The notes under the pieces were generated by a model. It was not told the origin of the DNA. It did no database searches and saw nothing but the letters and a program-made list of their open reading frames with translations. This document shows positions 34,948 through 47,337 of a stretch of DNA of 64,000 bases, piece after piece (position 1 is the first letter of the stretch; each line of letters begins with the position of its first letter). Made by a program: the position numbers and the translations under genes. Location of the stretch: assembly GCA_902500125.1 (NCBI GenBank), contig GCA_902500125.1_4132.1, one strand, 5' to 3'. This stretch comes from Escherichia coli. Lineage in GTDB: Bacteria > Pseudomonadota > Gammaproteobacteria > Enterobacterales > Enterobacteriaceae.

Positions 34948-34972
34948 TTGCACGGGGATAGTACTTTATAAT
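34948..34972 (+). promoter_or_regulatory. putative weak promoter (TTGCAC ... TATAAT, short spacer)
   Basis: ATTGCACGGGGATAGTACTTTATAATAG; spacing is non-canonical. Confidence 0.3.
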
Positions 34973-35009
34973 AGTGTTTTATTCATACACCAACGATAAG
35001 GGCAACAGC

Positions 35010-35276
35010 ATGAATATTAAGTATTTTGCGACGCGTGAACAAGCTCGGATCGCCGCTCGCCAGGACGGGGCAACGTTTAAAGATATGGGCGTACAATCGG
35101 AACGTGGTAAACGTTGGGCCATTGTAAAGCGTAGTACAGCCAGATCATTACAGTACTGGTTAGCGGCGTTAAAAAGTCCCGATAGTGTATCGCGTCGAGT
35201 GGTAGAAATAAAGCTCGACCGAAAGGGCAACCGCGTGACCGTGTACCGTACTAAAAAGATTGCAGTACTTGAATAA
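35010..35276 (+). CDS. hypothetical early protein (88 aa); paralog of 46942..47337
   Basis: MNIKYFATREQARIAARQDGATFKDMG...DRKGNRVTVY shared with 46942. Confidence 0.55.
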   Translation: MNIKYFATREQARIAARQDGATFKDMGVQSERGKRWAIVKRSTARSLQYWLAALKSPDSVSRRVVEIKLDRKGNRVTVYRTKKIAVLE

Positions 35277-35284
35277 AAAGTACT

Positions 35285-35341
35285 TGCACCGTACTGATAA
35301 AAGCGTATAATGTTTTACATCGAGAGCGGGAACTCTTCCCG
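35285..35341 (+). promoter_or_regulatory. early cassette promoter + leader hairpin GCGGGAACTCTTCCCGC
   Basis: TTGCAC-N15-TATAAT; loop variant of cassette 1. Confidence 0.6.
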
Positions 35342-35363
35342 CCTATAACCTGGAGTAATGAAA

Positions 35364-35594
35364 ATGACTAATATGTATATGACTGAAGTTAAAACCGTAA
35401 AAGATACTACCACGAATAAAACTACTTACTTACAGCGGATCTGTGGTGTATGGCAACGTATCAGCAAATCAAAGTACTTTAAATTAACATCATATGCAAA
35501 CCGTTCGGATTCATTCAGTACTGAAATAAAAGGTAATAAAGTACACCAATACGGCACTTATTATTATTACAGCCTGGACGCGATTGCAGTATAA
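35364..35594 (+). CDS. hypothetical early protein (~76 aa)
   Basis: RBS CTGGAGTAATGAAAATG, second ATG chosen. Confidence 0.5.
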   Translation: MTNMYMTEVKTVKDTTTNKTTYLQRICGVWQRISKSKYFKLTSYANRSDSFSTEIKGNKVHQYGTYYYYSLDAIAV

Positions 35595-35624
35595 GCAGTT
35601 TACAAATCTTTACAATTGCCGGTA

Positions 35625-35653
35625 TTGACTTATTTTGTCAGTACTGGCATAAT
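35625..35653 (+). promoter_or_regulatory. promoter TTGACT-N17-CATAAT with no ORF for ~370 nt
   Basis: TTGACTTATTTTGTCAGTACTGGCATAATG; the transcript would cover intergenic elements A and B. Confidence 0.45.
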
Positions 35654-35843
35654 GTATTCATTGGCAGATAAGCCGTAGCCCATAGGGTGCGGGAGTGTAT
35701 CTATAGAAAAATTAGTTTAGTATAGTTACAATTGTGCACCCGGTGGGTTAGCTGTTGTCATGGGGTATATTATGCCAGTACTTGATAATGCTGTCAATAC
35801 TTTTTTTTAATATTCAGTACTGAAAACTATTTTTAAAAAGTAC

Positions 35844-35871
35844 TTGTAAACTATGTTTAAAGGCGTATAAT
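35844..35871 (+). promoter_or_regulatory. early promoter (TTGTAA-N16-TATAAT), upstream one of a tandem pair
   Basis: AAAAAGTACTTGTAAACTATGTTTAAAGGCGTATAATG. Confidence 0.6.
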
Positions 35872-35880
35872 GTTTTACAT

Positions 35881-35960
35881 CAGGACGGGGAACGAAATAA
35901 GTAACTTCCCGTTAAGTAGCCCAGGAGTAAGGCACACGAAAAACTCCCCTGATAAAATAG
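35881..35960 (+). ncRNA. ~80-nt structured leader/candidate small RNA between tandem promoters (copy 1)
   Basis: CAGGACGGGGAACGAAATAAGTAACTTCCCCGTTAAGTAGCCCAGGAGTAAGGCACACGAAAAACTCCCCTGAT; duplicated at 46021-46100 with stem-preserving changes. Confidence 0.35.
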
Positions 35961-35961
35961 T

Positions 35962-35989
35962 TTGACAATAGAAAGTAAAAGCGTATAAT
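35962..35989 (+). promoter_or_regulatory. promoter TTGACA-N16-TATAAT (downstream of the tandem pair)
   Basis: TTGACAATAGAAAGTAAAAGCGTATAATAC. Confidence 0.6.
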
Positions 35990-36021
35990 ACTTACATCAA
36001 CTACTGAATGAGGGTTACAAA

Positions 36022-36633
36022 ATGAAAACTATCACTACTACTACTTTTGTTATGGCTTTTTCTGAACTGAACGCAGAACAAAAAACGGCGGCTATCGAAC
36101 TGGTTCGGGATCGTGAGCGTTCATGTGAGGATAATTTCTTTGCTGAGGGCGTTATCGAGTACTATAAAGAAACAGTACTACCAGAATACGGCATAGATGA
36201 AGCTGAATTGCAATACAGTGGTTTTTGGTCGCAAGGTGACGGTGCATCAATCAGTACTAACCACGTTGACGCTGAGAAGTTTTTACGCAAGGTTAAGGCG
36301 TTAACGAAATATCGTTCAATCCGTCACCTGTTGAACGAGGATGATTTAGAAATGAGTGTAGAACGTTTCCAATCACGCTACGCACACGAAAACACGGTAG
36401 GCGGTTGCGTTGATACTCGCTACACTGATTTAACTGTAAAACAGGCGGCATTGGCTGAGGATCTGGAAAACTTACTGACTGATGCGATCCGTGAATTATC
36501 TCGTAAGTTGTACCGTGATTTAGAGAATGCATATGAGGATCAATTCACTACTGAAAACATTACTGCACTGATTGAGGGTAACGAATATCAATTCAATGTT
36601 ATTGATGGCGTAGTGGAATCAATCGAATATTAA
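36022..36633 (+). CDS. acidic hypothetical protein (203 aa)
   Basis: ORF track; RBS TGAGGGTTACAAAATG. Confidence 0.65.
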   Translation: MKTITTTTFVMAFSELNAEQKTAAIELVRDRERSCEDNFFAEGVIEYYKETVLPEYGIDEAELQYSGFWSQGDGASISTNHVDAEKFLRKVKALTKYRSIRHLLNEDDLEMSVERFQSRYAHENTVGGCVDTRYTDLTVKQAALAEDLENLLTDAIRELSRKLYRDLENAYEDQFTTENITALIEGNEYQFNVIDGVVESIEY

Positions 36634-36645
36634 TTTAAAAAGTAC

Positions 36646-36704
36646 TTGTAAACTAAGTTTAAAAGCGTATAATACTTTACATCAAGGCGGGGAGTGGTTC
36701 CCCG
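36646..36704 (+). promoter_or_regulatory. early cassette promoter + leader hairpin CGGGGAGTGGTTCCCCG
   Basis: TTGTAA-N16-TATAAT. Confidence 0.6.
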
Positions 36705-36723
36705 CTCAAACGAGGATTTAAAA

Positions 36724-36963
36724 ATGGCTAGTACTAAAACTTACAACGGACACAAAAACAAAACTCATTGGAATGTAAGCCTTTGGATTAATAACGGTGA
36801 GTCATTGTATCGGCTTGCTCAAAGTTGCATCGCACAAAGTAGAACTAAAGATATTGCTGCGGAATGTATGTACCGCAGATTAAAAGCCAACGGTACTACT
36901 ACAACGCCGGACGGCTTTAAGTATAGCACTACTGCGATCCGTGCTGCAATGGTTGGAATGTAA
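36724..36963 (+). CDS. hypothetical early protein (79 aa); paralog of 34682
   Basis: RBS ACGAGGATTTAAAAATG. Confidence 0.6.
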   Translation: MASTKTYNGHKNKTHWNVSLWINNGESLYRLAQSCIAQSRTKDIAAECMYRRLKANGTTTTPDGFKYSTTAIRAAMVGM

Positions 36964-37020
36964 TATTCAGTACTGAGATAATGGCGGGTAATAGTTCCCG
37001 CCTTTACTGAGGGTTATCTA

Positions 37021-37281
37021 ATGAGTAAAGTAATTAGCTATACAGCACTAAGCAAGTCATTATCTATTAGCCAGTGCACCGATGGTTATTGGCTTTATGA
37101 TGAAACGCGTGGAATGAATTTAGCTATGCGTGCAAAAACTGCTGAGGCGGCGTATCTTGAGGCACTGGAATACTACCAGGAACGTTTAACGGAAGTAGAA
37201 GAAGATTATAAAAGCCTCAAAGCGAAAGTAGATCATTTCGTCGGTCAATTCATCGAGGAAGACGACGATAAACAATACTGA
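37021..37281 (+). CDS. hypothetical protein (86 aa)
   Basis: Preceded by hairpin GGCGGGTAATAGTTCCCGCC and RBS TGAGGGTTATCTAATG. Confidence 0.55.
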   Translation: MSKVISYTALSKSLSISQCTDGYWLYDETRGMNLAMRAKTAEAAYLEALEYYQERLTEVEEDYKSLKAKVDHFVGQFIEEDDDKQY

Positions 37282-37291
37282 AAAAAAGTAC

Positions 37292-37350
37292 TTGCAATTA
37301 GTTTTCAGTACTGTATAATGGTTTACATCAAAGGGAGAAATGGTTCTCCC
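37292..37350 (+). promoter_or_regulatory. early cassette promoter + leader hairpin GGGAGAAATGGTTCTCCC
   Basis: TTGCAA-N16-TGTATAAT (extended -10). Confidence 0.65.
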
Positions 37351-37369
37351 TGGTAATGAGGAAAATAAA

Positions 37370-37591
37370 ATGGCTAATATCACTACTCTTTCCCAACTGG
37401 AAGCACTGGTGAAATCTATGCGGGAACATGCCGACAAAATCGGCGTACAAGATCCAGCCGTTTGCTTCTGCGACGAATTGAATGATGATACCCTGGTAAT
37501 AGCAGAAGTCCAGGACGTTTCTAACTATTCATCGCGTTACACTGGCGGCGTAGCAAATAAAGGCGACTTCTGTTTATACCTTACAAAATAA
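37370..37591 (+). CDS. hypothetical early protein (73 aa)
   Basis: RBS TGAGGAAAATAAAATG after the hairpin. Confidence 0.55.
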   Translation: MANITTLSQLEALVKSMREHADKIGVQDPAVCFCDELNDDTLVIAEVQDVSNYSSRYTGGVANKGDFCLYLTK

Positions 37592-37595
37592 CAAC

Positions 37596-37626
37596 GCGGG
37601 GAGATAATAACTCCCCGTTACTTTTT
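37596..37626 (+). terminator. rho-independent terminator (CGGGGAG-ATAATAA-CTCCCCG + T-tract)
   Basis: Hairpin followed by TTACTTTTT. Confidence 0.65.
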
Positions 37627-37768
37627 CAGTACTGAATCATTTAATAGACGGATCTCGGCACCCGGTGGGTTAGTGACTGTTTCGTCTTGATGTAGTAATT
37701 ATGCCAGTACTGGATGCACTTGTCAACAACTATTTTTCAAATACTTTTTATTAAAATACTTGCAATTA

Positions 37769-37825
37769 GTTTTTAAACGCGTATAATGTTTTGCATAGGG
37801 GGAGCGGTTCCCCCTGGTAACTAAG
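37769..37825 (+). promoter_or_regulatory. early cassette promoter + leader hairpin GGGGGAGCGGTTCCCCC
   Basis: TTGCAA-N16-TATAAT. Confidence 0.6.
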
Positions 37826-37835
37826 GAATAATAAA

Positions 37836-38072
37836 ATGCTTGAACAAATCAAATCAACGACTTCGAATGTAACGGGAACGGTAGCACACTTTACTAGTGA
37901 TGAATCGCGGGGCGTACCCTATTGTGCTGTACATGTAAACACTGATGGCAACTACTGGTTTACTGTTTACGGATCATATTCCTTTGGACGACCAGGGCAT
38001 CAAAAAATTCTGGATAAAGTACAGCCAACGGGTAAAAATATCACTGCTGAAATGTTTTATAAAAAATCATAA
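37836..38072 (+). CDS. hypothetical early protein (78 aa)
   Basis: RBS CTAAGGAATAATAAAATG. Confidence 0.6.
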   Translation: MLEQIKSTTSNVTGTVAHFTSDESRGVPYCAVHVNTDGNYWFTVYGSYSFGRPGHQKILDKVQPTGKNITAEMFYKKS

Positions 38073-38077
38073 AGTAC

Positions 38078-38136
38078 TTGATAATAGTTTTTAGTACTGT
38101 ATAATATTTTACATCGCAAGGGGGAGCGGTTCCCCC
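38078..38136 (+). promoter_or_regulatory. early cassette promoter (TTGATA-N16-TGTATAAT) + leader hairpin GGGGGAGCGGTTCCCCC
   Basis: Same hairpin sequence as the preceding cassette. Confidence 0.6.
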
Positions 38137-38156
38137 TGGTAACTAAGGATAATCAA

Positions 38157-38456
38157 ATGAAAATTGCAATCATCGCCCTGGCTTTATCTGTTTCCTCTTT
38201 CGCTGTTAATGCGTCATTAGATGTAAGTAGTGAAAAATTCATTCAGTGCACTGTTGCAATGACCGATGAAAGTACTGGCGAGATTGTATTAAAGGATCTG
38301 GAGATTCAGCCGGAAGCATTTAAAAACGGCCCGTTCCATGAAGAAGACGAAAACGGTAGCACGACAATTTATTATGATGCCAGTACTAAACGCGGTTCGG
38401 TCACTGTAATGGATACTGAGAAAGTAACGCATACCGGCGTTATTAATTGCCGTTGA
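38157..38456 (+). CDS. secreted early protein with signal peptide (99 aa)
   Basis: MKIAIIALALSVSSFAVNASLD; RBS CTAAGGATAATCAAATG. Confidence 0.6.
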   Translation: MKIAIIALALSVSSFAVNASLDVSSEKFIQCTVAMTDESTGEIVLKDLEIQPEAFKNGPFHEEDENGSTTIYYDASTKRGSVTVMDTEKVTHTGVINCR

Positions 38457-38477
38457 TAGATACTACGGGGTAACATC

Positions 38478-38708
38478 ATGACTAAGCGAATTGTTTTACT
38501 TAACGAAAGCAGTACTACACAACTACTTAACGCCGTGCATTATGATATTGAAACGAGCGTTAATCTTATCAGTACTGTAGTACTGTTGGACACTGGAAAG
38601 GTCGCCAATGATAAAGCGATTGCAGGTATATTAACGGATCTTGAGCCTGGTAGCAGTGCACCAATAACGTTAAATGGTAAAGTGTTTAATATTTTACTCA
38701 CTGATTAA
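38478..38708 (+). CDS. hypothetical protein (76 aa)
   Basis: ORF track; weak RBS; no promoter of its own. Confidence 0.5.
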   Translation: MTKRIVLLNESSTTQLLNAVHYDIETSVNLISTVVLLDTGKVANDKAIAGILTDLEPGSSAPITLNGKVFNILLTD

Positions 38709-38714
38709 GTACAT

Positions 38715-38737
38715 AGCCCACCTGGTGGGCTTTTTTG
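38715..38737 (+). terminator. rho-independent terminator (AGCCCACC-T-GGTGGGCT + T6)
   Basis: Perfect stem followed by TTTTTTG. Confidence 0.7.
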
Positions 38738-38790
38738 TTTTTGTAGTATCGTAGTACTGAGATACTTTGAAAATAGTTTTAAGAAAGTAG

Positions 38791-38819
38791 TTGACATTAC
38801 CGCAGAAAAGCGTAGAATG
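38791..38819 (+). promoter_or_regulatory. promoter TTGACA-N17-TAGAAT with ~110-nt structured leader
   Basis: Leader 38825-38925 is related to the 35881/46021 elements (ACGGGGA..AAGTAG..AGTAAG..ACGAAAAACT). Confidence 0.55.
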
Positions 38820-38941
38820 TATTACATCAAGACGGGGAGCACTAAGTAGACCGCCAGTAAGTCGAACGAAAAACTGGACACGTCGAGAAAACTTTGATAC
38901 ACTAATAAACGTAAACTAAACTTTAATTGAGGATTTATAAA

Positions 38942-39424
38942 ATGGCTAATGTAAAATCATTCATCAAAGCACTGGTAGCAAATGAAACTAACGTCGCGGC
39001 TGAGATCCTGGCTGAACTGGATAACGATACCATGAAAGCGGTACGCAATAATTTTAACATCGCGTACAGTACTGCGAAAGAACTACAAGCAAATAAAGCG
39101 GCAGAGATTGAAGCAGCGAAGGCGGCCCGTGAAGCAGAACTACAAGCAACAATTGAAAGTATCCAGGCGGCAGTAGTTGGGCTGGATCTGGAAGTAGTTA
39201 CCGAGATGGCACAAAAAGCCCTGGCGGTTAAGTACGGGGAAGATAAGCCGGAATCTAAGCCTAAAAAATGGATTCAAGAACGTGTAGCGGTAGTACTTGA
39301 TAACGGGGAAGAATATCTGATTCCGGTGCGTGGTAACTGCATTGCGGTAGTACTGGATGCTATCAAAGAAAGCGGATTGACTCGCGAGGAATGGATCGAA
39401 GCTCATCGCAAAGTTGAAGCATAA
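38942..39424 (+). CDS. Ala/Glu-rich coiled-coil early protein (161 aa)
   Basis: RBS ATTGAGGATTTATAAAATG. Confidence 0.6.
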   Translation: MANVKSFIKALVANETNVAAEILAELDNDTMKAVRNNFNIAYSTAKELQANKAAEIEAAKAAREAELQATIESIQAAVVGLDLEVVTEMAQKALAVKYGEDKPESKPKKWIQERVAVVLDNGEEYLIPVRGNCIAVVLDAIKESGLTREEWIEAHRKVEA

Positions 39425-39445
39425 CAATTAAAGTACTGAATCATT

Positions 39446-39472
39446 AGCCCACTTATACAGTGGGCTTTTTTG
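39446..39472 (+). terminator. rho-independent terminator (AGCCCACT-TATAC-AGTGGGCT + T6)
   Basis: Hairpin followed by TTTTTTG. Confidence 0.7.
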
Positions 39473-39625
39473 TGTTTATCGTTTACCAGGCCACCAGCAC
39501 CGCCTAGAAACGATTCTAACGTATTAAACTGTTTATCTGATGCATTGCCCTAGCTGGTGGCGTTAAAGTCGTTAGAATGCGATTGAGTGCGTTTAAAGTA
39601 TTTTGCAAAAAGTAATAAAAAGTAC

Positions 39626-39685
39626 TTGCACGATTAAGAGATTAGCGTATAATGTTTTACATCGAGAGGGGGAAACGGTTCTCCT
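39626..39685 (+). promoter_or_regulatory. early cassette promoter + leader hairpin GGGGGAAACGGTTCTCC
   Basis: TTGCAC-N16-TATAAT. Confidence 0.6.
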
Positions 39686-39708
39686 TCCAAATCAAAGGAA
39701 TCAAAACA

Positions 39709-39936
39709 ATGGCTATCGTAATCGCTTATGTAACTGGTACTACTGGCACTTCTTCTACTGTTGCTGTAATTACCAACAAGAAAGGTGCGGAATTACATTC
39801 TGCAATGGATACCTGGGCGGTAAATGAGTTCGGTCAGTGGGCAAGTGTAGCATATGTTGAAACCTATCAAGTGCCAACCATTAGCTTAACGGATCTCGGT
39901 GTAGATCGTATCCTTTGCCTGGATGAATTAAATTAA
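39709..39936 (+). CDS. hypothetical early protein (75 aa)
   Basis: MAIVIAYVTGTTGTSS; RBS AAAGGAATCAAAACAATG. Confidence 0.55.
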   Translation: MAIVIAYVTGTTGTSSTVAVITNKKGAELHSAMDTWAVNEFGQWASVAYVETYQVPTISLTDLGVDRILCLDELN

Positions 39937-39944
39937 AAAAGTAC

Positions 39945-40005
39945 TTGCAAAGTAAGTTGGATAAAGTATAATACATTACATCAAGGGGAGAAAATGGTTC
40001 TCCCC
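39945..40005 (+). promoter_or_regulatory. early cassette promoter + leader hairpin GGGGAGAAAATGGTTCTCCCC
   Basis: TTGCAA-N16-TATAAT. Confidence 0.6.
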
Positions 40006-40023
40006 ACTAAGAGGAAACTAAAA

Positions 40024-40167
40024 ATGAAAACTTGTCAATGTGGTAAAAAATCTATTACTGGTTTGAAACGGGGCGTTGCTCTTTGTCAGTATCACTATAA
40101 CGCTCAGGTATGGGGTAAAGAGTGGGCCGACCAGGTGGAAGCAGTAAAGAAAGCAAAAAGTAAGTAA
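40024..40167 (+). CDS. small Cys-rich protein (47 aa, CQCG...CQYH zinc-ribbon-like)
   Basis: RBS AAGAGGAAACTAAAAATG; the antisense ORF 40018..40227 was rejected. Confidence 0.45.
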   Translation: MKTCQCGKKSITGLKRGVALCQYHYNAQVWGKEWADQVEAVKKAKSK

Positions 40168-40186
40168 AATTATTATCACAGTACTA

Positions 40187-40215
40187 TTGACATAGATTGA
40201 TAGTACTGGCATAAT
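40187..40215 (+). promoter_or_regulatory. class-2 promoter AGTACTATTGACATAGATTGATAGTACTGGCATAAT (flanking inverted AGTACTAT/ATAGTACT)
   Basis: TTGACA-N17-CATAAT; same block at 40481, 43338 and 50987. Confidence 0.55.
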
Positions 40216-40248
40216 AGATTTTATCAAGACAACTAAGAGGAAACAATA

Positions 40249-40461
40249 ATGGCTATCATCACAAAAATCAAAGTAAACAAATCACTGGTTAAGCTGGAAG
40301 AAGTGAAAGAAGGTTATAAAGTATCGTGGTGCGGCATGTATCGGATTTTTACAGATGTTGACGATGCAATCAATTACTACACTGACACGGTAAAAAACTT
40401 TGTTCGTGCTGATGTGGTTATGGCAGTGGCAACACACAAAGCATCGAAAGAAAGTAAGTAA
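40249..40461 (+). CDS. hypothetical early protein (70 aa)
   Basis: RBS CTAAGAGGAAACAATAATG. Confidence 0.6.
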   Translation: MAIITKIKVNKSLVKLEEVKEGYKVSWCGMYRIFTDVDDAINYYTDTVKNFVRADVVMAVATHKASKESK

Positions 40462-40480
40462 AAATATTATCACAGTACTA

Positions 40481-40509
40481 TTGACATAGTTTGATAGTAC
40501 TGGCATAAT
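40481..40509 (+). promoter_or_regulatory. class-2 promoter (duplicate of 40187 block)
   Basis: About 80 bp duplicated almost exactly, including the downstream RBS region. Confidence 0.55.
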
Positions 40510-40542
40510 AGATTTTATCAAGACAACTAAGAGGAAATTAAA

Positions 40543-40887
40543 ATGGCTAATATCAACACTATCGCAAAACAAAATATCAACCTGTCTTCTGTTGAAGTTG
40601 TACATATTGCCGCTCGGCGTTGGTTCCAGGCTTCATATGGTAACACTTATTTCTCTTTAAGTGTAGACGTAGAAATTGATGGTAATTTTATTGAAGTAGT
40701 AAACGTGCCGTTCCAATATGGATACGGGGATCACTTTGACACTGTAGCAATGGAAGAATTTAGCAAGGTTATTAATATGGAAGATAAAGAGTTTTTACGC
40801 GGTTCTTATCTTTCCCGTTTTTGCCGTGACAATAATATCACTGTTTACAGTTCGGTAACTGATGTTAAACGCAAAAAAGATCTTTAA
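40543..40887 (+). CDS. hypothetical early protein (114 aa); paralog of 46523..46846
   Basis: Shared NTY..S and C-terminal VKRKKD[LM]. Confidence 0.6.
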   Translation: MANINTIAKQNINLSSVEVVHIAARRWFQASYGNTYFSLSVDVEIDGNFIEVVNVPFQYGYGDHFDTVAMEEFSKVINMEDKEFLRGSYLSRFCRDNNITVYSSVTDVKRKKDL

Positions 40888-40967
40888 TTAGCTTTACTTT
40901 ATGCAGATACTTTGATATAGTGTCTGCATAGGGGAAAGAAATTAAATTAACTTAAGAGGATCGTATA

Positions 40968-41237
40968 ATGAAAAATATCAGTACTTTAATCGATGCAGGT
41001 ACACATGTTCGGCGGTCTATGGTTGCAACCAGTACTACAAAACAAGTAGCGAGCGGTTATCTTGTATTTGTGCACGATGGTAAACTCCTGGAACGTTCAA
41101 TCAATTTTGATGTTAAAAACAATTGCCGTTTTATTATCTTTCGCCGTGAACAATATAAGATCGACATTCCAGCGAAGCCCATTAGCGGTGCGTACAATGT
41201 GCAATCATTGTTTGAGCGTCAACCATACACCTATTAA
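40968..41237 (+). CDS. hypothetical protein (89 aa)
   Basis: RBS TAAGAGGATCGTATAATG. Confidence 0.55.
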   Translation: MKNISTLIDAGTHVRRSMVATSTTKQVASGYLVFVHDGKLLERSINFDVKNNCRFIIFRREQYKIDIPAKPISGAYNVQSLFERQPYTY

Positions 41238-41288
41238 TCAAAACATCGTTAGCGGTCGATTCAGGCCGCTTATATTGGGGATTATACC

Positions 41289-41561
41289 ATGAACGTTAAT
41301 CAAGTACTGAATGAGATCGAAAGCATCATTAAACCGATGAAGCGTACTGATGCTATGTTAACACCGGAAGAATGCCGCCTTTATGAGCGTTACAGCGTCG
41401 AACAAGTCCAGGCAATGGCTATGGCTACCCCAGCCGTTAAACCGCCTGAGAATGCGTTACAGGACGTTACAGGGGATTATATCATCAATCCAGTACTAGG
41501 GAAGATGGCTGCAATCACCGAAGATCAACAAGACTACTTAAGCCAGTACTTAAAAGGTTAA
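41289..41561 (+). CDS. hypothetical protein (90 aa)
   Basis: ORF track; RBS TGGGGATTATACCATG. Confidence 0.55.
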   Translation: MNVNQVLNEIESIIKPMKRTDAMLTPEECRLYERYSVEQVQAMAMATPAVKPPENALQDVTGDYIINPVLGKMAAITEDQQDYLSQYLKG

Positions 41562-41566
41562 TTAAT

Positions 41567-41776
41567 ATGCTTACTGTACAGGATAAGATCGACATCTTAA
41601 AGGTTAATATGTATGTGATTGATGCCGTACCTGGTAAAGTATTTGCATACGATGACACTACTGTAAGCGATTTCTACTATAGCCAGGCCGTGGGGGATCT
41701 TTCTGTACAGTCGGTTATTGAAAACGTAGTTAATGCAGCGTATGAGCATTTACTTTCAAATAGTACTTGCAATTAG
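41567..41776 (+). CDS. hypothetical protein (69 aa)
   Basis: ORF track; its 3' end overlaps the next promoter. Confidence 0.5.
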   Translation: MLTVQDKIDILKVNMYVIDAVPGKVFAYDDTTVSDFYYSQAVGDLSVQSVIENVVNAAYEHLLSNSTCN

Positions 41777-41826
41777 TTTTTAAACGCGTATAATGTTTTA
41801 CATGAAGGGGAGAAATGATTCTCCCC
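41767..41826 (+). promoter_or_regulatory. early cassette promoter + leader hairpin GGGGAGAAATGATTCTCCCC
   Basis: TTGCAA-N16-TATAAT. Confidence 0.6.
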
Positions 41827-41845
41827 ACTAATTAAGGAATATGAA

Positions 41846-41992
41846 ATGAAAGCATCAAAAAAGAGTAATACTAAGAAAGCACGTTCACCTTTCGCTGGGG
41901 TATTCCCTTTACGTTTCGTTGATGAAGTAGTTTCCTACCCGCCGGGCCTTACTCCTGAGATGGTAGAAAGTTTGCGTAAATCTAAAAAATAG
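41846..41992 (+). CDS. small basic protein (48 aa)
   Basis: RBS TTAAGGAATATGAAATG; below the track cutoff. Confidence 0.4.
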   Translation: MKASKKSNTKKARSPFAGVFPLRFVDEVVSYPPGLTPEMVESLRKSKK

Positions 41993-41995
41993 TAC

Positions 41996-42055
41996 TTGCA
42001 ATTAGTTTTTAGTACTGTATAATAGTTTACATGAAGGGGAGAAATGATTCTCCCC
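41996..42055 (+). promoter_or_regulatory. early cassette promoter + leader hairpin GGGGAGAAATGATTCTCCCC
   Basis: TTGCAA-N16-TGTATAAT; hairpin identical to the previous cassette. Confidence 0.6.
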
Positions 42056-42073
42056 AATAACAGGAGAAACAAA

Positions 42074-42226
42074 ATGAAACAATACAACGCTCGGTTTGAT
42101 GTTACTATCGGTAACGGCAAAGGTCAATTCTCTTTCAGTACTCGCAAAAGTTATACAGAAAACTTCCTGCGTAATTGTGCACTGACCGCCGCTCAAATTA
42201 AACATTATTTTCAGGCTAAAAAATGA
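42074..42226 (+). CDS. small hypothetical protein (50 aa)
   Basis: RBS ACAGGAGAAACAAAATG. Confidence 0.5.
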   Translation: MKQYNARFDVTIGNGKGQFSFSTRKSYTENFLRNCALTAAQIKHYFQAKK

Positions 42227-42312
42227 AATCATTAGCTTATTACAGTTCAGCGGTGATCGGTGCATTGATCGCGGCATTGTTAGTAACCTATCTATTCTTT
42301 ATGGTGATTTAA
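42223..42312 (+). CDS. 29-aa hydrophobic peptide
   Basis: ATGA-coupled; MKSLAYYSSAVIGALIAALLVTYLFFMVI. Confidence 0.3.
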   Translation: MKSLAYYSSAVIGALIAALLVTYLFFMVI

Positions 42313-42453
42313 ATGAATCCTAACGGTTTAATTTACAGTACTCCTAAAACGAAAGCAGATAAAGCGAAAGCACGTAAAGCGAAAGTAAAGGAGTACATTA
42401 AGCAAGGCATGACGCGAAAGGCCGCACTACTCAGAGTAAAGGCTGAAAAATAA
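42313..42453 (+). CDS. 46-aa basic peptide
   Basis: Starts right after the upstream stop; K/R-rich. Confidence 0.3.
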   Translation: MNPNGLIYSTPKTKADKAKARKAKVKEYIKQGMTRKAALLRVKAEK

Positions 42454-42461
42454 TTGAAAAA

Positions 42462-42492
42462 AGGGTTGACTCCGGTCAGTCCCTTTGCTATT
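42462..42492 (+). terminator. class T2 terminator/promoter element (AGGGTTGAC-TCCG-GTCAGTCCCTTTGCTATTAT)
   Basis: Hairpin followed by TTTG; TTGACT within the stem lies 17 nt from TATTAT. Confidence 0.65.
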
Positions 42493-42588
42493 ATATATAC
42501 ATACCAGCGATACACTGGCGGCCCATAGGGTGCACAAATGTATCTATTATATAAGTATTGAGTACTGAAAACTATTTTTAAAAAGTAC

Positions 42589-42647
42589 TTGCAAACTATC
42601 TCAATAAGCGTATAATGTTTTACATCGAAAGGGGAAACGGTTTCCCC
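42589..42647 (+). promoter_or_regulatory. early cassette promoter + leader hairpin GGGGAAACGGTTTCCCC
   Basis: TTGCAA-N16-TATAAT; preceded by intergenic element A. Confidence 0.6.
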
Positions 42648-42667
42648 TGGTAATAAGGAAACAAATC

Positions 42668-43009
42668 ATGACTATCTCAATTGCTCAATCTAACTTTGAA
42701 AATGAAATCATCGCCCAGGCACTGCGTTTAAATGATGGTCGGGCCGAAATTAATTACGGTTTCAATTCAGGCGGTTGTGAAAAATATCAGTACTTTGTAA
42801 CGGCTGATGGCGGTGTCCTGGGTATCAATACAGTTATTGTAAACATCCAAAAAATTAATTTCAATGATCCAGACGATAGCCAGTTTTACATCACGGGCGT
42901 AGACGTGAACTATGAGGATGACTCACTAACTGATGACTACACTGGTGAAACGTTAGAAAGTGCATACTGTGAAGATGATTATCAGTCCGGTCCAGAAGAT
43001 TTCGAATAA
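42668..43009 (+). CDS. acidic hypothetical protein (113 aa)
   Basis: RBS TAAGGAAACAAATCATG. Confidence 0.6.
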   Translation: MTISIAQSNFENEIIAQALRLNDGRAEINYGFNSGGCEKYQYFVTADGGVLGINTVIVNIQKINFNDPDDSQFYITGVDVNYEDDSLTDDYTGETLESAYCEDDYQSGPEDFE

Positions 43010-43024
43010 TATAAAAAAATAGTT

Positions 43025-43084
43025 TGACAATAGATTATAGTACTGTATAATAGTTTACATCAAGGGGAGAAAAACTTCTCCCCA
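43025..43084 (+). promoter_or_regulatory. early cassette promoter (TTGACA-N16-TGTATAAT) + hairpin GGGGAGAAAAACTTCTCCCC
   Basis: Consensus-like promoter. Confidence 0.65.
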
Positions 43085-43105
43085 CTAACAGAGAGAGAAA
43101 ACAAA

Positions 43106-43318
43106 ATGGCTAATATCTGCACTGTACTGAAAAATGCAAAACAAGTTTTATTTTCTGATCACGATCATTTAAACAAGGATATTACTGGCGTTCGGAATAT
43201 CAAAGATGTAAAAAGTGTTATGGGTATCTATTGCAATATGAAACGTGTTGGAACGTTCGGCGACAAAGTACTATACCAGGCAGGGGATTACAATTTTACA
43301 CTGACTATCATTAACTAA
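43106..43318 (+). CDS. hypothetical early protein (70 aa)
   Basis: RBS AGAGAGAGAAAACAAAATG. Confidence 0.55.
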   Translation: MANICTVLKNAKQVLFSDHDHLNKDITGVRNIKDVKSVMGIYCNMKRVGTFGDKVLYQAGDYNFTLTIIN

Positions 43319-43337
43319 AAATATATTACCAGTACTA

Positions 43338-43365
43338 TTGACATAGTTTGATAGTACTGTATAAT
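43338..43365 (+). promoter_or_regulatory. class-2 promoter (AGTACTATTGACATAGTTTGATAGTACTGTATAAT)
   Basis: TTGACA-N16-TGTATAAT. Confidence 0.55.
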
Positions 43366-43409
43366 AAGTTTTATAAACAGTAGTTAACTTAACCTAAGAG
43401 AGAAATAAA

Positions 43410-43553
43410 ATGATCGCACTGGATTCATTCATCGACGCAGTACTGGCAAAAACTGGCGAGGATCTGACCGCAGAACAATACGCGATGATCGAGCAATGTC
43501 AGCAAGACGGTAAATCGGTGAAAGATACTGTTAAGATTATCCGCAAGATGTAA
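43410..43553 (+). CDS. small acidic protein (47 aa)
   Basis: RBS TAAGAGAGAAATAAAATG; below the track cutoff. Confidence 0.4.
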   Translation: MIALDSFIDAVLAKTGEDLTAEQYAMIEQCQQDGKSVKDTVKIIRKM

Positions 43554-43560
43554 TATTATA

Positions 43561-43590
43561 GCCCACTGGTCAACGCTGGTGGGCTTTAAT
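43561..43590 (+). terminator. terminator-like hairpin AGCCCACTGG-TCAACG-CTGGTGGGCT
   Basis: 10-bp stem; weak T-tract (TTTAATCC). Confidence 0.45.
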
Positions 43591-43652
43591 CCTTTACCCT
43601 ATACAATGCCAGTACTAAACCGTTTATCTCGTTAGAATGCGTTACAGGACGT

Positions 43653-43856
43653 TTGACAATGATTAGCATGAAATCAGTACAAAAACAAATAGAAACATTA
43701 TCAAAAATTAAACGTAAACAGTACTCGTTAGAATATACAATCAATGGTAACTATCATCTAATGAAAGAGAATAATTTTATTGTCATTGATGAATCATTGC
43801 AAATCATTAGTATAGTACTGAAAGCATTAATCAATGACAGAAAAAAATTAAAATAA
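43653..43856 (+). CDS. hypothetical protein (67 aa)
   Basis: ORF track; weak RBS; AT-rich. Confidence 0.35.
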   Translation: MTMISMKSVQKQIETLSKIKRKQYSLEYTINGNYHLMKENNFIVIDESLQIISIVLKALINDRKKLK

Positions 43857-43860
43857 TCTA

Positions 43861-43889
43861 TTGACAATATCATCCAGTACTGGCATAAT
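43861..43889 (+). promoter_or_regulatory. promoter TTGACA-N17-CATAAT with ~295-nt leader
   Basis: TTGACAATATCATCCAGTACTGGCATAAT; the leader holds element A and a cluster of GATCAA/TGATCA motifs. Confidence 0.55.
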
Positions 43890-44185
43890 ACTTACATCAA
43901 GACGAGAACGTCACTAACCCATAGGGTGCACAAATGTAACTATATAATATCGATCAATAAATGATCAAAAAAGTACTGGATCAATTTAACATAAGGAGTA
44001 TAATTCTGATCAATTCTTGATCAAAGGCAATATACGCAGTTGAATTTATATAGACATTACAAAGGCGTTACTATCCGTGGTAATGCTGGTGGATATGTAG
44101 TATCATATGGTTTGAATAAGATTAGCACTAGTAGTATTATTGTAGCATTACAGTACTATAGTATTTTTATAATGAGGTTAAAATA

Positions 44186-44443
44186 ATGGCAGTAGGATAC
44201 GCGAAAGACGGGGCCGAACAAGACGAGATTCACGCAGTGATTCAGGCCGCCGTTAACCACGCTAGAAAGCAAATTAACGCACAAAGAGAATCACTGGTAC
44301 ATTGCCTCGACTGCGGCGATAAAATCCCTGAGAATCGACGCCAGGCCGTTATAGGGTGCATGTATTGTATTACTTGCCAGGAGGATCATGATAGTACTTT
44401 TAAAAGAGATCCGCGTAATTGTTGGCATAGATCTATGAGATAA
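44186..44443 (+). CDS. DksA/TraR-family C4 zinc-finger protein
   Basis: HCLDCGDKIPENRRQAVIGCMYCITCQ (C-x2-C...C-x2-C with a P-x-x-RR motif); RBS TGAGGTTAAAATAATG. Confidence 0.75.
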   Translation: MAVGYAKDGAEQDEIHAVIQAAVNHARKQINAQRESLVHCLDCGDKIPENRRQAVIGCMYCITCQEDHDSTFKRDPRNCWHRSMR

Positions 44444-44450
44444 AAAGTAA

Positions 44451-44478
44451 TTGACAGTACTGAAAGATAGTGTATAAT
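44451..44478 (+). promoter_or_regulatory. promoter TTGACA-N16-TGTATAAT
   Basis: TTGACAGTACTGAAAGATAGTGTATAATG. Confidence 0.6.
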
Positions 44479-44507
44479 GTTTTATATCTTAACTGAGGAT
44501 AGTAATC

Positions 44508-44864
44508 ATGGGAATACAACATATCACGCGTACTACTGACAATGGAGAGATCACTGGTTATCAGGTACAGGGCAAAGTAGCACAATTGCAGTACTGGTTT
44601 GTTAAACGTGGAATCATTGCACCGGATCTTGATTATGACCGTGTAGCGTTTATTGATTCTCTTTATGTTGATCCTGATAGTCGGGGCAATGGTGAAGGTA
44701 ACGAATTAATGAATGCCTTTATCGATGCCGCCGATGATTCAGATTGTATCATCTTAGAATGCGATACGGGAGAAGATAACGCCTTTAATCTTAAAGAATG
44801 GTACGAAGGTTTCGGATTCGAGGTATTGATAGATAGTGAATATCCTATCATGATTTTATCATAG
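44508..44864 (+). CDS. small GNAT-family acetyltransferase-like protein (118 aa)
   Basis: VDPDSRGNGEGNELMNAF (acetyl-CoA motif A-like R/Q-x-x-G-x-G) and ...KEWYEGFGFE; RBS TGAGGATAGTAATCATG. Confidence 0.5.
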   Translation: MGIQHITRTTDNGEITGYQVQGKVAQLQYWFVKRGIIAPDLDYDRVAFIDSLYVDPDSRGNGEGNELMNAFIDAADDSDCIILECDTGEDNAFNLKEWYEGFGFEVLIDSEYPIMILS

Positions 44865-44867
44865 TAC

Positions 44868-44924
44868 TTGCATTTAGTTTTCAGTACTGTTATAGTACTT
44901 GCATCAAGGGGAAACATCTTCCCC
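44868..44924 (+). promoter_or_regulatory. early cassette promoter (TTGCAT...TATAGT) + hairpin GGGGAAACATCTTCCCC
   Basis: -10 non-consensus. Confidence 0.45.
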
Positions 44925-44942
44925 TACTAAGAGGAAATAAAA

Positions 44943-45131
44943 ATGGAAAACTTATCAAGTATTTTAGTACAAGATGATTTCGGTAATCCTGGAAGTGCTA
45001 TCATTGTTCGGGGCAATAAAGCAACGTTTGTTATTGCTGGTGGACCCGTACAGCGTAGCATTAAAAATAATGCTGTTACCATTAATAATGTACGCTATCG
45101 CTTAGATAAAGAATTAATTCATAAACTGTAA
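44943..45131 (+). CDS. hypothetical early protein (62 aa)
   Basis: RBS TAAGAGGAAATAAAAATG. Confidence 0.55.
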   Translation: MENLSSILVQDDFGNPGSAIIVRGNKATFVIAGGPVQRSIKNNAVTINNVRYRLDKELIHKL

Positions 45132-45138
45132 AAAAGTA

Positions 45139-45200
45139 CTGGATAATAGATTATAGTACTGTATAATAGTTTACATGAAGGGGAGAAATGATTCTCCCCA
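45139..45200 (+). promoter_or_regulatory. early cassette promoter (weak -35, TGTATAAT) + hairpin GGGGAGAAATGATTCTCCCC
   Basis: Extended -10; third occurrence of this hairpin sequence. Confidence 0.5.
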
Positions 45201-45216
45201 CTAAGAGGAAAGAAAA

Positions 45217-45429
45217 ATGCAAGGTCAACTAATCGTTCGTAAATGGTCTGATACTAACGAAAAACCGTGGGATGTACAATACATCGCCCCCAATGGTGAA
45301 TCCAGATATCAACCAGGTGTAACGCATAGTACTGAGCAATTCGCCGCCGCTCATCGCGAACGTCTGTTACAATCAATGCAGCAAGGTTTCGGTGAAAAAT
45401 TCATTCAGGATCATTGGCTGAAAGATTAA
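45217..45429 (+). CDS. hypothetical early protein (70 aa)
   Basis: RBS TAAGAGGAAAGAAAAATG. Confidence 0.55.
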   Translation: MQGQLIVRKWSDTNEKPWDVQYIAPNGESRYQPGVTHSTEQFAAAHRERLLQSMQQGFGEKFIQDHWLKD

Positions 45430-45436
45430 AAAGTAC

Positions 45437-45494
45437 TTGCACTGTACTGAATAAAGTGTATAATGTTTTATATCGGAAGGGGAATAGTTCCCCT
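45437..45494 (+). promoter_or_regulatory. early cassette promoter + hairpin GGGGAATAGTTCCCC
   Basis: TTGCAC-N16-TGTATAAT. Confidence 0.6.
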
Positions 45495-45515
45495 CCTAAC
45501 AAAGAGGAAAGTATA

Positions 45516-45689
45516 ATGGTCCAGGTAGAATTAACAGTACTGAAAGATCTGTTTTATCGGATTGGTACTACTGGCGAATATCCGAAGGGTGATAATGCAA
45601 AACTTTACGTATCACTCGACTTATGGCAACGCGAACAATTAGCAACGGCCTGGCGTAAAGGCAAAGCAGATAGCGAGGTGAAAGCATGA
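45516..45689 (+). CDS. small hypothetical protein (57 aa)
   Basis: RBS AAAGAGGAAAGTATAATG after the hairpin. Confidence 0.5.
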   Translation: MVQVELTVLKDLFYRIGTTGEYPKGDNAKLYVSLDLWQREQLATAWRKGKADSEVKA

Positions 45690-45835
45690 AAGAATTCTTA
45701 TTTGAAGTAGTGTTTCAAGGTGTCGGTAGTAACCAACTGATTCGCTCAAGTGGTTATAATGTTAACCAGGCATGGAATAACATTAAACAAATGTACCCGA
45801 ACGCTATCACCTATCGCAACCCGAAAGAAGTTTAA
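45686..45835 (+). CDS. small hypothetical protein (49 aa)
   Basis: ATGA-coupled ORF MKEFLFEVVFQG...; below the track cutoff. Confidence 0.35.
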   Translation: MKEFLFEVVFQGVGSNQLIRSSGYNVNQAWNNIKQMYPNAITYRNPKEV

Positions 45836-45848
45836 AAATAATTGAAAA

Positions 45849-45880
45849 AGGGATTGACTCCGGTCAGTCCCTTTGCTATT
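45849..45880 (+). terminator. class T2 terminator/promoter element
   Basis: AAAAAGGGATTGACTCCGGTCAGTCCCTTTGCTATTATATACGCATAG. Confidence 0.65.
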
Positions 45881-45982
45881 ATATACGCATAGAAACAAAT
45901 TAGCCCACCGGGTGCATAAATGTATCTATTGTTTGCTGGTGGCTAGTACTATCAAGTACTGAAAACTATTTTTAAAAAGTAC

Positions 45983-46010
45983 TTGCATTGTAATTAGAAT
46001 CAAGTATAAT
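45983..46010 (+). promoter_or_regulatory. early promoter (TTGCAT-N16-TATAAT), upstream of tandem pair
   Basis: Part of a ~170-bp block duplicated from 35823-35990. Confidence 0.6.
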
Positions 46011-46020
46011 GTTTTACATC

Positions 46021-46100
46021 AGGACGGGGAACGAAACAAGTAACCCCGTTAAGTAGTCCAGGAGTAAGACATACGAAAAACTCCCCTGATAAAATAGTTT
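46021..46100 (+). ncRNA. structured leader/candidate small RNA (copy 2)
   Basis: Copy of 35881-35960 with stem-compatible substitutions (ACGGGGAACGAAACAAGTAACCCCGTT). Confidence 0.35.
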
Positions 46101-46126
46101 GACAATAGAAAGTAAACGAGTATAAT
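46099..46126 (+). promoter_or_regulatory. promoter TTGACA-N16-TATAAT (downstream of pair)
   Basis: TTGACAATAGAAAGTAAACGAGTATAATAC. Confidence 0.6.
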
Positions 46127-46159
46127 ACTTACATCAACCACTGATAAGGAAACATTAAA

Positions 46160-46435
46160 ATGCGGATTCTACTGACAGCTAACGAAATCGAACAAGTACT
46201 GACTACTAACCTGGAACAATGGAAACGTGATGCAGATATCCAGGCGGTTCAATGGCTTAACGATAAGTTAACGCCGGATGACTTAAGCAAGATTGTAGAT
46301 CCTCAATTCTACGAAGATATTCACGACACGGCTTTAAGCGTCGAGGATGTACTTGATAAGCATTACATTAATACCGATTTACAGGTTTACGGGCGTAAAA
46401 ACTTTATCACTATTCACGACATTTACAATACTTAA
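46160..46435 (+). CDS. hypothetical early protein (91 aa)
   Basis: RBS TAAGGAAACATTAAAATG. Confidence 0.6.
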   Translation: MRILLTANEIEQVLTTNLEQWKRDADIQAVQWLNDKLTPDDLSKIVDPQFYEDIHDTALSVEDVLDKHYINTDLQVYGRKNFITIHDIYNT

Positions 46436-46438
46436 GTA

Positions 46439-46497
46439 TTGACAAAGTATCTTAGTACTGTATAATAGTTTACATCAAGGCGGGGAAATGGTTCCCC
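46439..46497 (+). promoter_or_regulatory. early cassette promoter (TTGACA-N16-TGTATAAT) + hairpin CGGGGAAATGGTTCCCCT
   Basis: Consensus promoter. Confidence 0.65.
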
Positions 46498-46522
46498 TCC
46501 TAACAAAGAGAGAGAAATAAAA

Positions 46523-46846
46523 ATGGCTATGATCCTTACCCAGAAAGTGGAATTGAAAATTGTAACCTCCTTTGACATTAAAGTTAATCGCTGGACTGAT
46601 CGGAACGGCAATACTTACCACTCTTGCTACGTGTCTGCGTTAATTGGCGACCGCTGGGAAGACCTGGGACACGAAACCTTTACATACGGTTACGGTACGC
46701 AAGGCGAATACACTGGTTTGGAGATCATTAAAGAAACCGTTATAGGTTTCAACCCGAAAGAAAAAGTTATGCACCGCATCGAAAAAGAGATTAACAAAGA
46801 AATAACAGTTCGCTACTACGATGTAAAACGTAAGAAAGACATGTAA
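46523..46846 (+). CDS. hypothetical early protein (107 aa); paralog of 40543
   Basis: RBS AGAGAGAGAAATAAAAATG. Confidence 0.6.
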   Translation: MAMILTQKVELKIVTSFDIKVNRWTDRNGNTYHSCYVSALIGDRWEDLGHETFTYGYGTQGEYTGLEIIKETVIGFNPKEKVMHRIEKEINKEITVRYYDVKRKKDM

Positions 46847-46868
46847 TAGAATCCATTTAAAGTACTAT

Positions 46869-46897
46869 TTGACATTGCCCAGATAGTACTTTATAAT
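46869..46897 (+). promoter_or_regulatory. promoter TTGACA-N17-TATAAT
   Basis: TTGACATTGCCCAGATAGTACTTTATAAT. Confidence 0.6.
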
Positions 46898-46941
46898 AGA
46901 CTCTAACTTGTAGTACTAACTCAACTAATAGGATGTATACC

Positions 46942-47337
46942 ATGATTACTAAATTCTACGCTACCCGTGAAGCTGCCCGTATTGTTGCACGCGAGGAAGG
47001 AGCAGCATTTAAAGACATGGGAACGACAGCACCGAAAGGTCAACGCTGGGCCGTACAGTTCAAAGAAATCTCTGATATTGTGAATTCACCTGAGCCAGTA
47101 CTAACAGCAGCAGAACTAAAACGAGCGGATATGCTGGCGGCAATACTTGACGCACAAGATGAGTTTATCGCTGATTCTGATATCAAAGTACAGGTAAACC
47201 ACACCGCATGGACTCACGCGGATCACCTGGCAAACCTTAAGCGTCCAAGTGAACTGATTCGCAACCAGAAAGAGATCCGACATGATCGTAAGGGTAATCG
47301 TGTAACAGTATACAGTAAACGCCGCCAGGTTATCTAA
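46942..47337 (+). CDS. hypothetical protein (~131 aa); paralog of 35010
   Basis: MITKFYATREAARIVAREEGAAFKDMG...DRKGNRVTVY; RBS TAGGATGTATACCATG. Confidence 0.55.
   Translation: MITKFYATREAARIVAREEGAAFKDMGTTAPKGQRWAVQFKEISDIVNSPEPVLTAAELKRADMLAAILDAQDEFIADSDIKVQVNHTAWTHADHLANLKRPSELIRNQKEIRHDRKGNRVTVYSKRRQVI

Follow-up and report, generated by a model that had tools for sequence, protein, structure and literature searches.

Much of what is understood about transcription control comes from structured cis-encoded RNAs in the early leaders of phages, such as nut and put, of which few families are known. The putL and putR RNAs of phage HK022 are ~70-nt, two-stem, cis-acting RNAs that lie just 3' of the phage early promoters and are transcribed by the host polymerase. 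The 5'-terminal stem-loops of the ompA type act as stabilisers, being obstacles to RNase E access. T4-type phages carry PeSL cassettes, in which an early promoter is combined with simple stem-loops described as terminators (Arbiol 2010; Comeau 2014, PMC4122927). We examined a stretch of 64,000 nt (hereafter the window) from contig GCA_902500125.1_4132.1 of an Escherichia coli assembly, and we report a leader element that occurs in it three times, between tandem promoters. We show that this element is a folded RNA domain formed by the first ~65-80 nt of the transcript of the upstream early promoter. It belongs to a phage-only structured RNA family, named here the AAGUAG/ACGAAA leader pseudoknot, which we rate, within the literature searched, as a new family of a known kind, the structured leader RNAs of phage early operons.

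The window holds exactly three copies of the element (A, B and a diverged copy C), each lying between an upstream sigma70-type promoter and a second promoter. These promoters are labelled P1 (upstream) and P2 (downstream), and the labels are distinct from those of the helices, P1 (closing helix), P2 (optional hairpin) and P3 (core stem). The copies and their promoters are, in window coordinates:

35844-35871, plus strand: upstream promoter of copy A, TTGTAA-16-TATAAT, 10/12 consensus positions (promoter family D2), predicted start near A35877
35877-35957, plus strand: element copy A, minimum free energy (MFE) fold with helices P1, P2 and P3, z -1.9, 56.3 bits with core model R1
35879-35884 with 35948-35953, plus strand: closing helix P1 of copy A, AUCAGG/CCUGAU
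35885-35892 with 35906-35912, plus strand: hairpin P2 of copy A
35913-35922, plus strand: junction of copy A, UAAGUAGCCC
35924-35928 with 35943-35947, plus strand: stem P3 of copy A, loop at 35929-35942
G35919-C35921 with G35931-C35933, plus strand: pseudoknot of copy A
35962-35989, plus strand: downstream promoter of copy A, TTGACA-16-TATAAT, the consensus (12/12)
38791-38818, plus strand: upstream promoter of copy C, TTGACA-16-TAGAAT (11/12)
38824-38887, plus strand: element copy C, without hairpin P2, 56.8 bits with core model R1
38831-38834 with 38881-38884, plus strand: closing helix of copy C, GACG/CGUC
38843-38852, plus strand: junction of copy C
38854-38858 with 38873-38877, plus strand: stem P3 of copy C
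G38849-C38851 with G38861-C38863, plus strand: pseudoknot of copy C
38894-38922, plus strand: weak second promoter of copy C, TTGATA-17-TAAACT (9/12)
45983-46010, plus strand: upstream promoter of copy B, TTGCAT-16-TATAAT, read from the sequence (promoter family D2)
46016-46096, plus strand: element copy B, MFE fold identical to the centroid, a three-way junction, z -3.3, 58.6 bits with core model R1
46018-46023 with 46085-46090, plus strand: closing helix P1 of copy B, AUCAGG/CCUGAU
46024-46029 with 46044-46049, plus strand: hairpin P2 of copy B
46050-46059, plus strand: junction of copy B
46061-46065 with 46080-46084, plus strand: stem P3 of copy B
G46056-C46058 with G46068-C46070, plus strand: pseudoknot of copy B
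46099-46126, plus strand: downstream promoter of copy B, TTGACA-16-TATAAT (12/12)

A 33-nt degenerate core pattern matched exactly these three sites of the window (0.00 expected from shuffles), and the core covariance model recovered the same three with 56-59 bits (E about 1e-14), the next best site in the 64 kb reaching 9 bits. Copies A and B were 94% identical over 100 nt (35908-36007 against 46045-46144, second promoter included; repeat family D11), and 5' of that stretch they differed by a 2-nt indel and one substitution. The original prediction, made from the letters of the window, had described duplicated blocks at 35844-35990 and 45983-46126, substitutions that preserve an ACGGGG/CCCCGU stem, and a diverged version near 38825-38925. 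Both blocks were present at those positions, the stem was kept in copies A and B, and the diverged version is real and corresponds to copy C, in which a 17-nt gap removes the first hairpin and the core is kept, with GGAGU/ACUCC changed to CCAGU/ACUGG. The ACGGGG/CCCCGU hairpin had been presented as the key feature, but it proved dispensable, the conserved core being the downstream junction, stem P3 and its loop. The start motif ACATCARGACGGGGA was not specific to the element, with 7 matches and related versions after many other early promoters of the window. No start codon with a Shine-Dalgarno (SD) sequence was read inside any of the three copies, i.e. no leader peptide.

All three copies match the core consensus of the family, which comprises a UAAGUAG-N-C junction, the 5-bp stem P3 and an enclosed loop of 14-16 nt, UAAG-N'-C-NN-ACGAAAAA. 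The junction G-N-C pairs with the loop G-N'-C over 3 bp, giving an H-type pseudoknot. The closing helix begins about 2 nt from the 5' end (about +3) and ends 0-3 nt after stem P3; hairpin P2 is optional, being absent in copy C and in many relatives. The minimum-energy fold of copies A and B is a three-way junction.

Covariation in related phages had been suggested as a check, and compensatory changes were indeed found in stem P3, in the closing helix and in the junction-loop pair. In the all-clade alignment of stem P3 (29 sequences), we observed CG/GC, CG/GC/UA and UA/AU swaps with 92% of cells paired; the stem reads GGAGU/ACUCC in copies A and B, CCAGU/ACUGG in copy C and CCUG/CAGG in the T7-like phages. 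The junction-loop covariation is carried by a single variable pair (AU 21, UA 3, CG 2, one mismatch) flanked by an invariant G-C and C-G, and in the window this pair is C-G in copy A, U-A in copy B and A-U in copy C. The alignment of the T7-like phages (21 distinct sequences) contains three helices, namely hairpin S1, pseudoknot S2 and stem P3, where the loop of S1 pairs with the 5-6 nt after stem P3 and so forms a second pseudoknot. Both-side changes occurred at 10/15 pairs of this alignment and 91% of its cells were paired, against 14-35% for slid helices, and the observed value was reached by 0/500 shuffles. Helix S2 varies in one register as GUCAA/UUGAC, GAUUAG/CUAAUC, GUCAC/GUGAC, GUCAUC/GAUGAC and GUCGGU/ACCGAC.

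The nested type of the element (jumbo and rV5-like phages) has a closing helix in which nt +3 to +8 of the predicted transcript pair with the bases that directly follow P3. Its registers differ, so that no single column-wise alignment is possible, and it was therefore tested per sequence by permutation. Nine different complementary sequences were found across twelve lineages, including a clean C-G to G-C swap between Hallingskeid and contig L099, and the mean helix length was 5.4, compared to 4.0 +/- 0.2 with permuted partners (0/20000) and 3.5 with shuffled tails (0/5000). The closing helix of copy C is likewise compensated in the JNE01, EJP2 and 121Q relatives. Throughout the family G·U pairs were frequent (e.g. 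8-9 at the base of P3) and A·C nearly absent, which indicates that the selected fold is that of the promoter-sense RNA strand and not of duplex DNA. The claim of a structured RNA between tandem promoters was thereby borne out, and its conservation extends far beyond the window.

The element was detected just 3' of the first host-type early promoter in >500 genomes of phages of enteric bacteria, T7 included, always on the sense strand and at 0-45 nt 3' of an early promoter of the sigma70 type. Over the 12 kb surrounding the element the window showed 88-95% identity, in mosaic pieces, to the jumbo coliphages 121Q/PBECO4/SP27 (Asteriusvirus), and in some Asteriusvirus-group records the matching region is held by annotated direct terminal repeats; the window itself reads as an Asteriusvirus-like jumbo coliphage. 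Blast searches with the 89-nt element gave 88-100% identity in other Asteriusvirus genomes, and about 90-93% both in ~140-146-kb phages (Justusliebigvirus outra, muut and EmilieFrey) and in phages filed under Vequintavirinae (A7_1, A5-4, W70 and A73). The core lies again between two promoters, with differing promoter sequences, in outra, muut, A7_1, W70 and EmilieFrey; in A7_1 both promoters are of other sequence (-10 TAAGAT) and the element is conserved. As far as compared, muut (contig L002, 2499-2700) and window positions 46016-46435 share a near-identical element, downstream promoter and first ~40 nt of the 91-aa gene, which suggests cassette exchange between phage families, here a jumbo phage and a Justusliebigvirus of 146 kb. 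Outra has this element in front of another gene, one that has an ordinary cassette in the window, and since the element stands before differing genes in muut and outra, the module is portable.

The core of copy C also matched Yersinia phage phiA1122 at 553-587, Kayfunavirus and Klebsiella T7-like phages, and the jumbo phages Munch, Salmonella 7t3, Klebsiella fENko-Kae01 and Erwinia Hallingskeid, with the core between two promoters in 7t3, fENko-Kae01 and Hallingskeid as well. In T7 the core model placed the core at 546-592 with 65.9 bits. This segment lies within the A1 transcript, which starts at 498, and ends in the -35 hexamer of A2 (start 626), thus occupying the A1-A2 interval. The T7 query recovered 485 T7-like phage records with one place in each, and their hosts were Escherichia, Klebsiella, Salmonella, Yersinia, Enterobacter, Citrobacter, Shigella and Serratia, plus at least one Aeromonas phage. 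The T7 interval and its counterpart in T7-like Autographiviridae belong to the same RNA family as the window copies. They have the junction, P3, the loop and the closing helix, and the element is again placed between tandem sigma70 promoters. Unlike in the window copies, in the T7-likes the loop of the hairpin before the core supplies the closing helix with its 5' strand, which makes the second pseudoknot, the element starts about 35-49 nt into the transcript and not at +3, and the 3' strand overlaps the A2 -35 hexamer.

Pattern scans of the IMG/VR and JGI metagenomes added more variants, including a 68-kb contig (L089) and the short contigs L041, L125 and L127 (a first, strict IMG/VR pattern was over-specified and gave zero matches, and a looser one succeeded). 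In L125 and L041 the element is the sole 5' untranslated region (UTR) of the next gene, without a second promoter. Between unrelated phage families the unpaired bases show 85-92% identity. The next -35 hexamer is found anywhere between 2 and about 40 nt from the core, and in most clades an A/G-rich single-stranded tract lies 3' of the element.

These data bear on a reading at the level of DNA, where the element would be an UP or activator site for the downstream promoter, or a homology block hitch-hiking with cassette recombination as PeSL does in T4-type phages. A-rich tracts are found 5' of the -35 hexamer of the downstream promoter, the 3' strand of one helix in T7 is the A2 -35 TTGAC itself, and the window is an array of recombining promoter cassettes, of which a whole cassette is common to muut. 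However, the spacing to the -35 hexamer varies, and on this and the G·U evidence the UP-element form was rejected; L125 and L041 have the element and lack the second promoter; the compensatory helices, with G·U and not A·C, are strand-specific and therefore RNA; and the 3' strand of helix S2 stays complementary even where it is not a -35 hexamer (contigs L016, L034 and L059). We regard a role of the DNA as very improbable.

Known RNA families did not account for the element. Rfam 15 gave no match at gathering score in the whole window, and at E up to 10 the best value for the element was E = 4.5, a chance level, with nothing in T7 490-930 and chance matches only (Lnt, NBR2, snoU49). The lack of real Rfam matches argues against a hammerhead, pistol or hatchet ribozyme, ToxI or a known riboswitch. 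No tRNA or tmRNA was found in the window. With blastn at E values up to 10, a search of 5,426 E. coli genomes retrieved no host homologue, and the pattern scan of 185,579 species genomes returned only two small contigs with T7-like early-leader sequence, which we take to be phage contamination, and one chance hit in coding sequence; by sequence the element is not a host mimic. The loop variants AAGUCGAACG and AAGUCGUA resemble segments of 16S rRNA, a likeness judged coincidental because the loop positions vary and one of them covaries with the junction. Keyword and literal-sequence searches of 8 million full texts, a collection without the older papers of subscription journals, found the T7 sequence only as a printed template and no description of the motif.

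The lambda nut and rrn boxA-boxB signals resemble the element in being promoter-proximal RNA signals (nut in phage early leaders), and the T7-likes and L041 carry an rrn-type boxA downstream. They differ in that no boxA was found near the three window copies and in that the 14-16-nt loop is unlike boxB. The rrn-type boxA (GCTCTTTAACAA) lies 3' of the element at about 810 in T7 (contig L004), at about 555-575 in L009 and L011 and at about 4160 in L041, and the metagenomic phage L089 has the form TGCTCTTTAAAAA 3' of the element. The only exact match of the window to an rrn-type boxA, TGCTCTTTAACAA, is at 2899-2911 on the minus strand, apparently inside coding sequence.

The original prediction had also proposed that the structure attenuates read-through, i.e. 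that it stops transcripts of the upstream promoter before the gene. Stable hairpins do stand between that promoter and the gene, but no U-tract follows any helix, and the terminator scan found no intrinsic terminator between promoter and gene in the three copies (35872-36021, 38819-38941 and 46011-46159), with no terminator-like site before the start codon and the same picture in relatives. Roughly 40 distinct copies inspected across clades had neither a U-tract nor a terminator-like hairpin after the element. Attenuation is hardly credible on these grounds.

Hairpins resembling intrinsic terminators are found outside the element, all three copies being preceded by one, and they bracket copy C together with its single gene:

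38715-38731, plus strand: hairpin AGCCCACCTGGTGGGCT with a T5 run after it, intrinsic-terminator-like, immediately 5' of copy C (terminator scan)
39446-39466, plus strand: terminator-like hairpin after the gene of copy C (terminator scan)

This bracketing speaks indirectly against a processive antiterminator of the put kind, in which the nascent RNA would bind its own polymerase and confer terminator resistance across the array. The element does share with HK022 put the size (~70 nt), the two-stem form and the place just downstream of an early promoter, and it fits the description of putL in these respects. Nevertheless, it has no sequence or structure match to the HK022 early region, the core model finding nothing in HK022 20000-40751 (best 6.7 bits, E 1.2), so that a put homologue was rejected. 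T7 A1 transcripts terminate efficiently at TE in vitro, which also counts against this reading, and we consider it improbable.

The genes that follow the three copies are mutually unrelated and all of unknown function, with no common theme such as anti-restriction:

36022-36633, plus strand: gene served by copy A, 203 aa, phrog_5162, no Pfam match above cut-off
38942-39424, plus strand: gene served by copy C, 160 aa, phrog_27871
46160-46435, plus strand: gene served by copy B, 91 aa, phrog_14947

Such unrelated genes would be expected if the upstream promoter and the element formed a small RNA gene placed before an ordinary promoter-gene cassette, the RNA acting in trans or as a decoy. The pseudoknot would then be freed by processing (by RNase III in T7, and elsewhere by RNase E cleaving the A-rich tract that follows the closing helix). 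Once released, the RNA would titrate or redirect a defence protein or a host factor at a very early stage of infection. A strong promoter serves the element alone, and the cassette after it nearly always brings another, which is the weakest point of a role in cis; the near-identity of the unpaired bases across unrelated families, the A/G-rich tract after the element and the detachment of the T7 leader by RNase III fit this reading as well. Against it, none of the roughly 40 copies has a terminator, the element is always co-oriented with and directly upstream of early genes, it serves as sole 5' UTR in L125 and L041, it lacks a known target or partner, and the host genomes searched contain nothing that resembles it. 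For the regulatory RNA of ~80-100 nt that had been predicted, the part concerning its own promoter stood, but a discrete short RNA would need processing in the absence of a terminator, and in L125 and L041 the element is a plain 5' UTR. We regard a trans-acting RNA as the main rival to the reading favoured below, less probable than that reading and more probable than the put-like antiterminator.

We tentatively favour, with somewhat less than even confidence, a leader RNA domain acting in cis, promoter-proximal in immediate-early transcripts and recognised by a conserved host component. Host RNA polymerase would make the immediate-early transcript, and the element would act on it at the RNA level. 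Its invariant unpaired bases would probably be read by a conserved Enterobacterales component, for which the transcription-elongation/Rho machinery and the RNA-decay machinery are candidates. The likely effect would be to protect the long untranslated transcript of the upstream promoter, either from Rho-dependent termination or from RNase E scanning and 5'-end-dependent decay, and the gene would then be driven by the ordinary downstream promoter, free of the domain. That a conserved host macromolecule recognises the element is suggested by the near-invariance of the unpaired bases across phage families that share no other DNA, and by the restriction of these bases to phages of Enterobacterales. 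A role in cis is favoured because no copy has a 3'-end signal, all are co-oriented and directly 5' of early genes, and some are the only 5' UTR of their gene.

Several points weigh against this interpretation. The function is deduced from sequence and structure; the sequences are related, the covariation controls remove shared ancestry only in part, and the shuffle controls overstate significance. The closing-helix and pseudoknot assignments were made partly by hand, and ViennaRNA cannot score pseudoknots. A pure 5' stabiliser would suit the jumbo phages, where the 5' end is paired, but suits T7 poorly, where the domain begins near +35 to +49 of the transcript and where RNase III cuts the leader off the 0.3 mRNA at site R0.3. 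A cis role also leaves the near-constant second strong promoter unexplained, and a trans-acting decoy would account just as well for unpaired bases so strongly conserved among unrelated phages. The comparison with ompA-type stabilisers is divided in the same way: in the jumbo and rV5-like copies the closing helix similarly leaves about 2 unpaired 5' nt, whereas invariant loop and junction bases are not needed for such a stabiliser and the T7-like element lies away from the very 5' end.

The three elements belong, as special cases, to an array of early promoter cassettes, found by the promoter scan and by repeat families D1-D6:

34130-50730, plus strand: early promoter cassette array, at least 21 near-identical cassettes

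Each cassette consists of AGTACTTGcaa-N16-TATAAT-gtttt-ACATC, a short GGGGA..TCCCC hairpin, an SD sequence, an ATG and a small open reading frame; the initial transcribed sequence ACATC is conserved and the 5' hairpin has no U-tract. The first ~15 nt of the element (ACATCAGGACGGGG) are common to ordinary cassettes, which indicates that the element is a cassette whose simple 5' hairpin has been swapped for a larger domain. The surrounding 16-kb array resembles PeSL in its repeated early promoter and short stem-loop before small unknown genes and in its signs of cassette exchange; the element, unlike PeSL, is larger, pseudoknotted, conserved in sequence and common to unrelated phage families.

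Other repeats were observed in and around the array. At 33949-34054, directly before the first early promoter of the array, a 53-nt unit is perfectly duplicated in tandem and accompanied by a third, diverged unit (family D7). The motif GCACCCGGTGGGYT is repeated with conserved flanks at 33504-33557, 33720-33773, 37649-37702 and about 35738 (family D14), it often adjoins -10-like hexamers, and palindromic relatives of it make up the terminator-like hairpins at 38715 and 39446. On the minus strand, an intergenic module of ~135 nt is present in three copies (42445-42590, 45833-45985 and 48840-48985; 84% column identity), each with a TATAAT-like -10 followed by an RNA of ~85-95 nt that begins ACAUUUGUGCACCC and ends with the intrinsic-terminator-like AAAGGGACUGACCGGAGUCAAYCCCUUUUUU. 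We take this module as a candidate gene for a small RNA antisense to the early array, and its hairpin may be a bidirectional terminator just 5' of the upstream promoter of copy B.

The family occurs in at least three unrelated groups of enterobacterial phages, among them T7, the standard for early transcription by host polymerase and for transcription-driven genome entry. It is possible, though clearly short of an even chance, that it represents a class of regulatory RNA not yet described in phages. This would be a compact pseudoknot, the first product of the strongest immediate-early promoters, with little change between T7 and jumbo phages of 350 kb. By binding a host protein that is itself conserved (RNA polymerase/Nus/Rho, an RNase or an immunity factor), it would secure early transcription or disarm defence. 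If so, the A1 leader of T7 would contain a functional RNA that had gone unrecognised. Should the domain bind a host factor, a shared early step of takeover or protection would be identified, and a compact natural part for transcript control in E. coli would be gained. If it is merely a stabilising fold, it would still be of use in annotation, as a marker for the first early promoter of each transcription unit in these phages. Because T7 carries it, the family is unusually easy to test, by T7 genetics.

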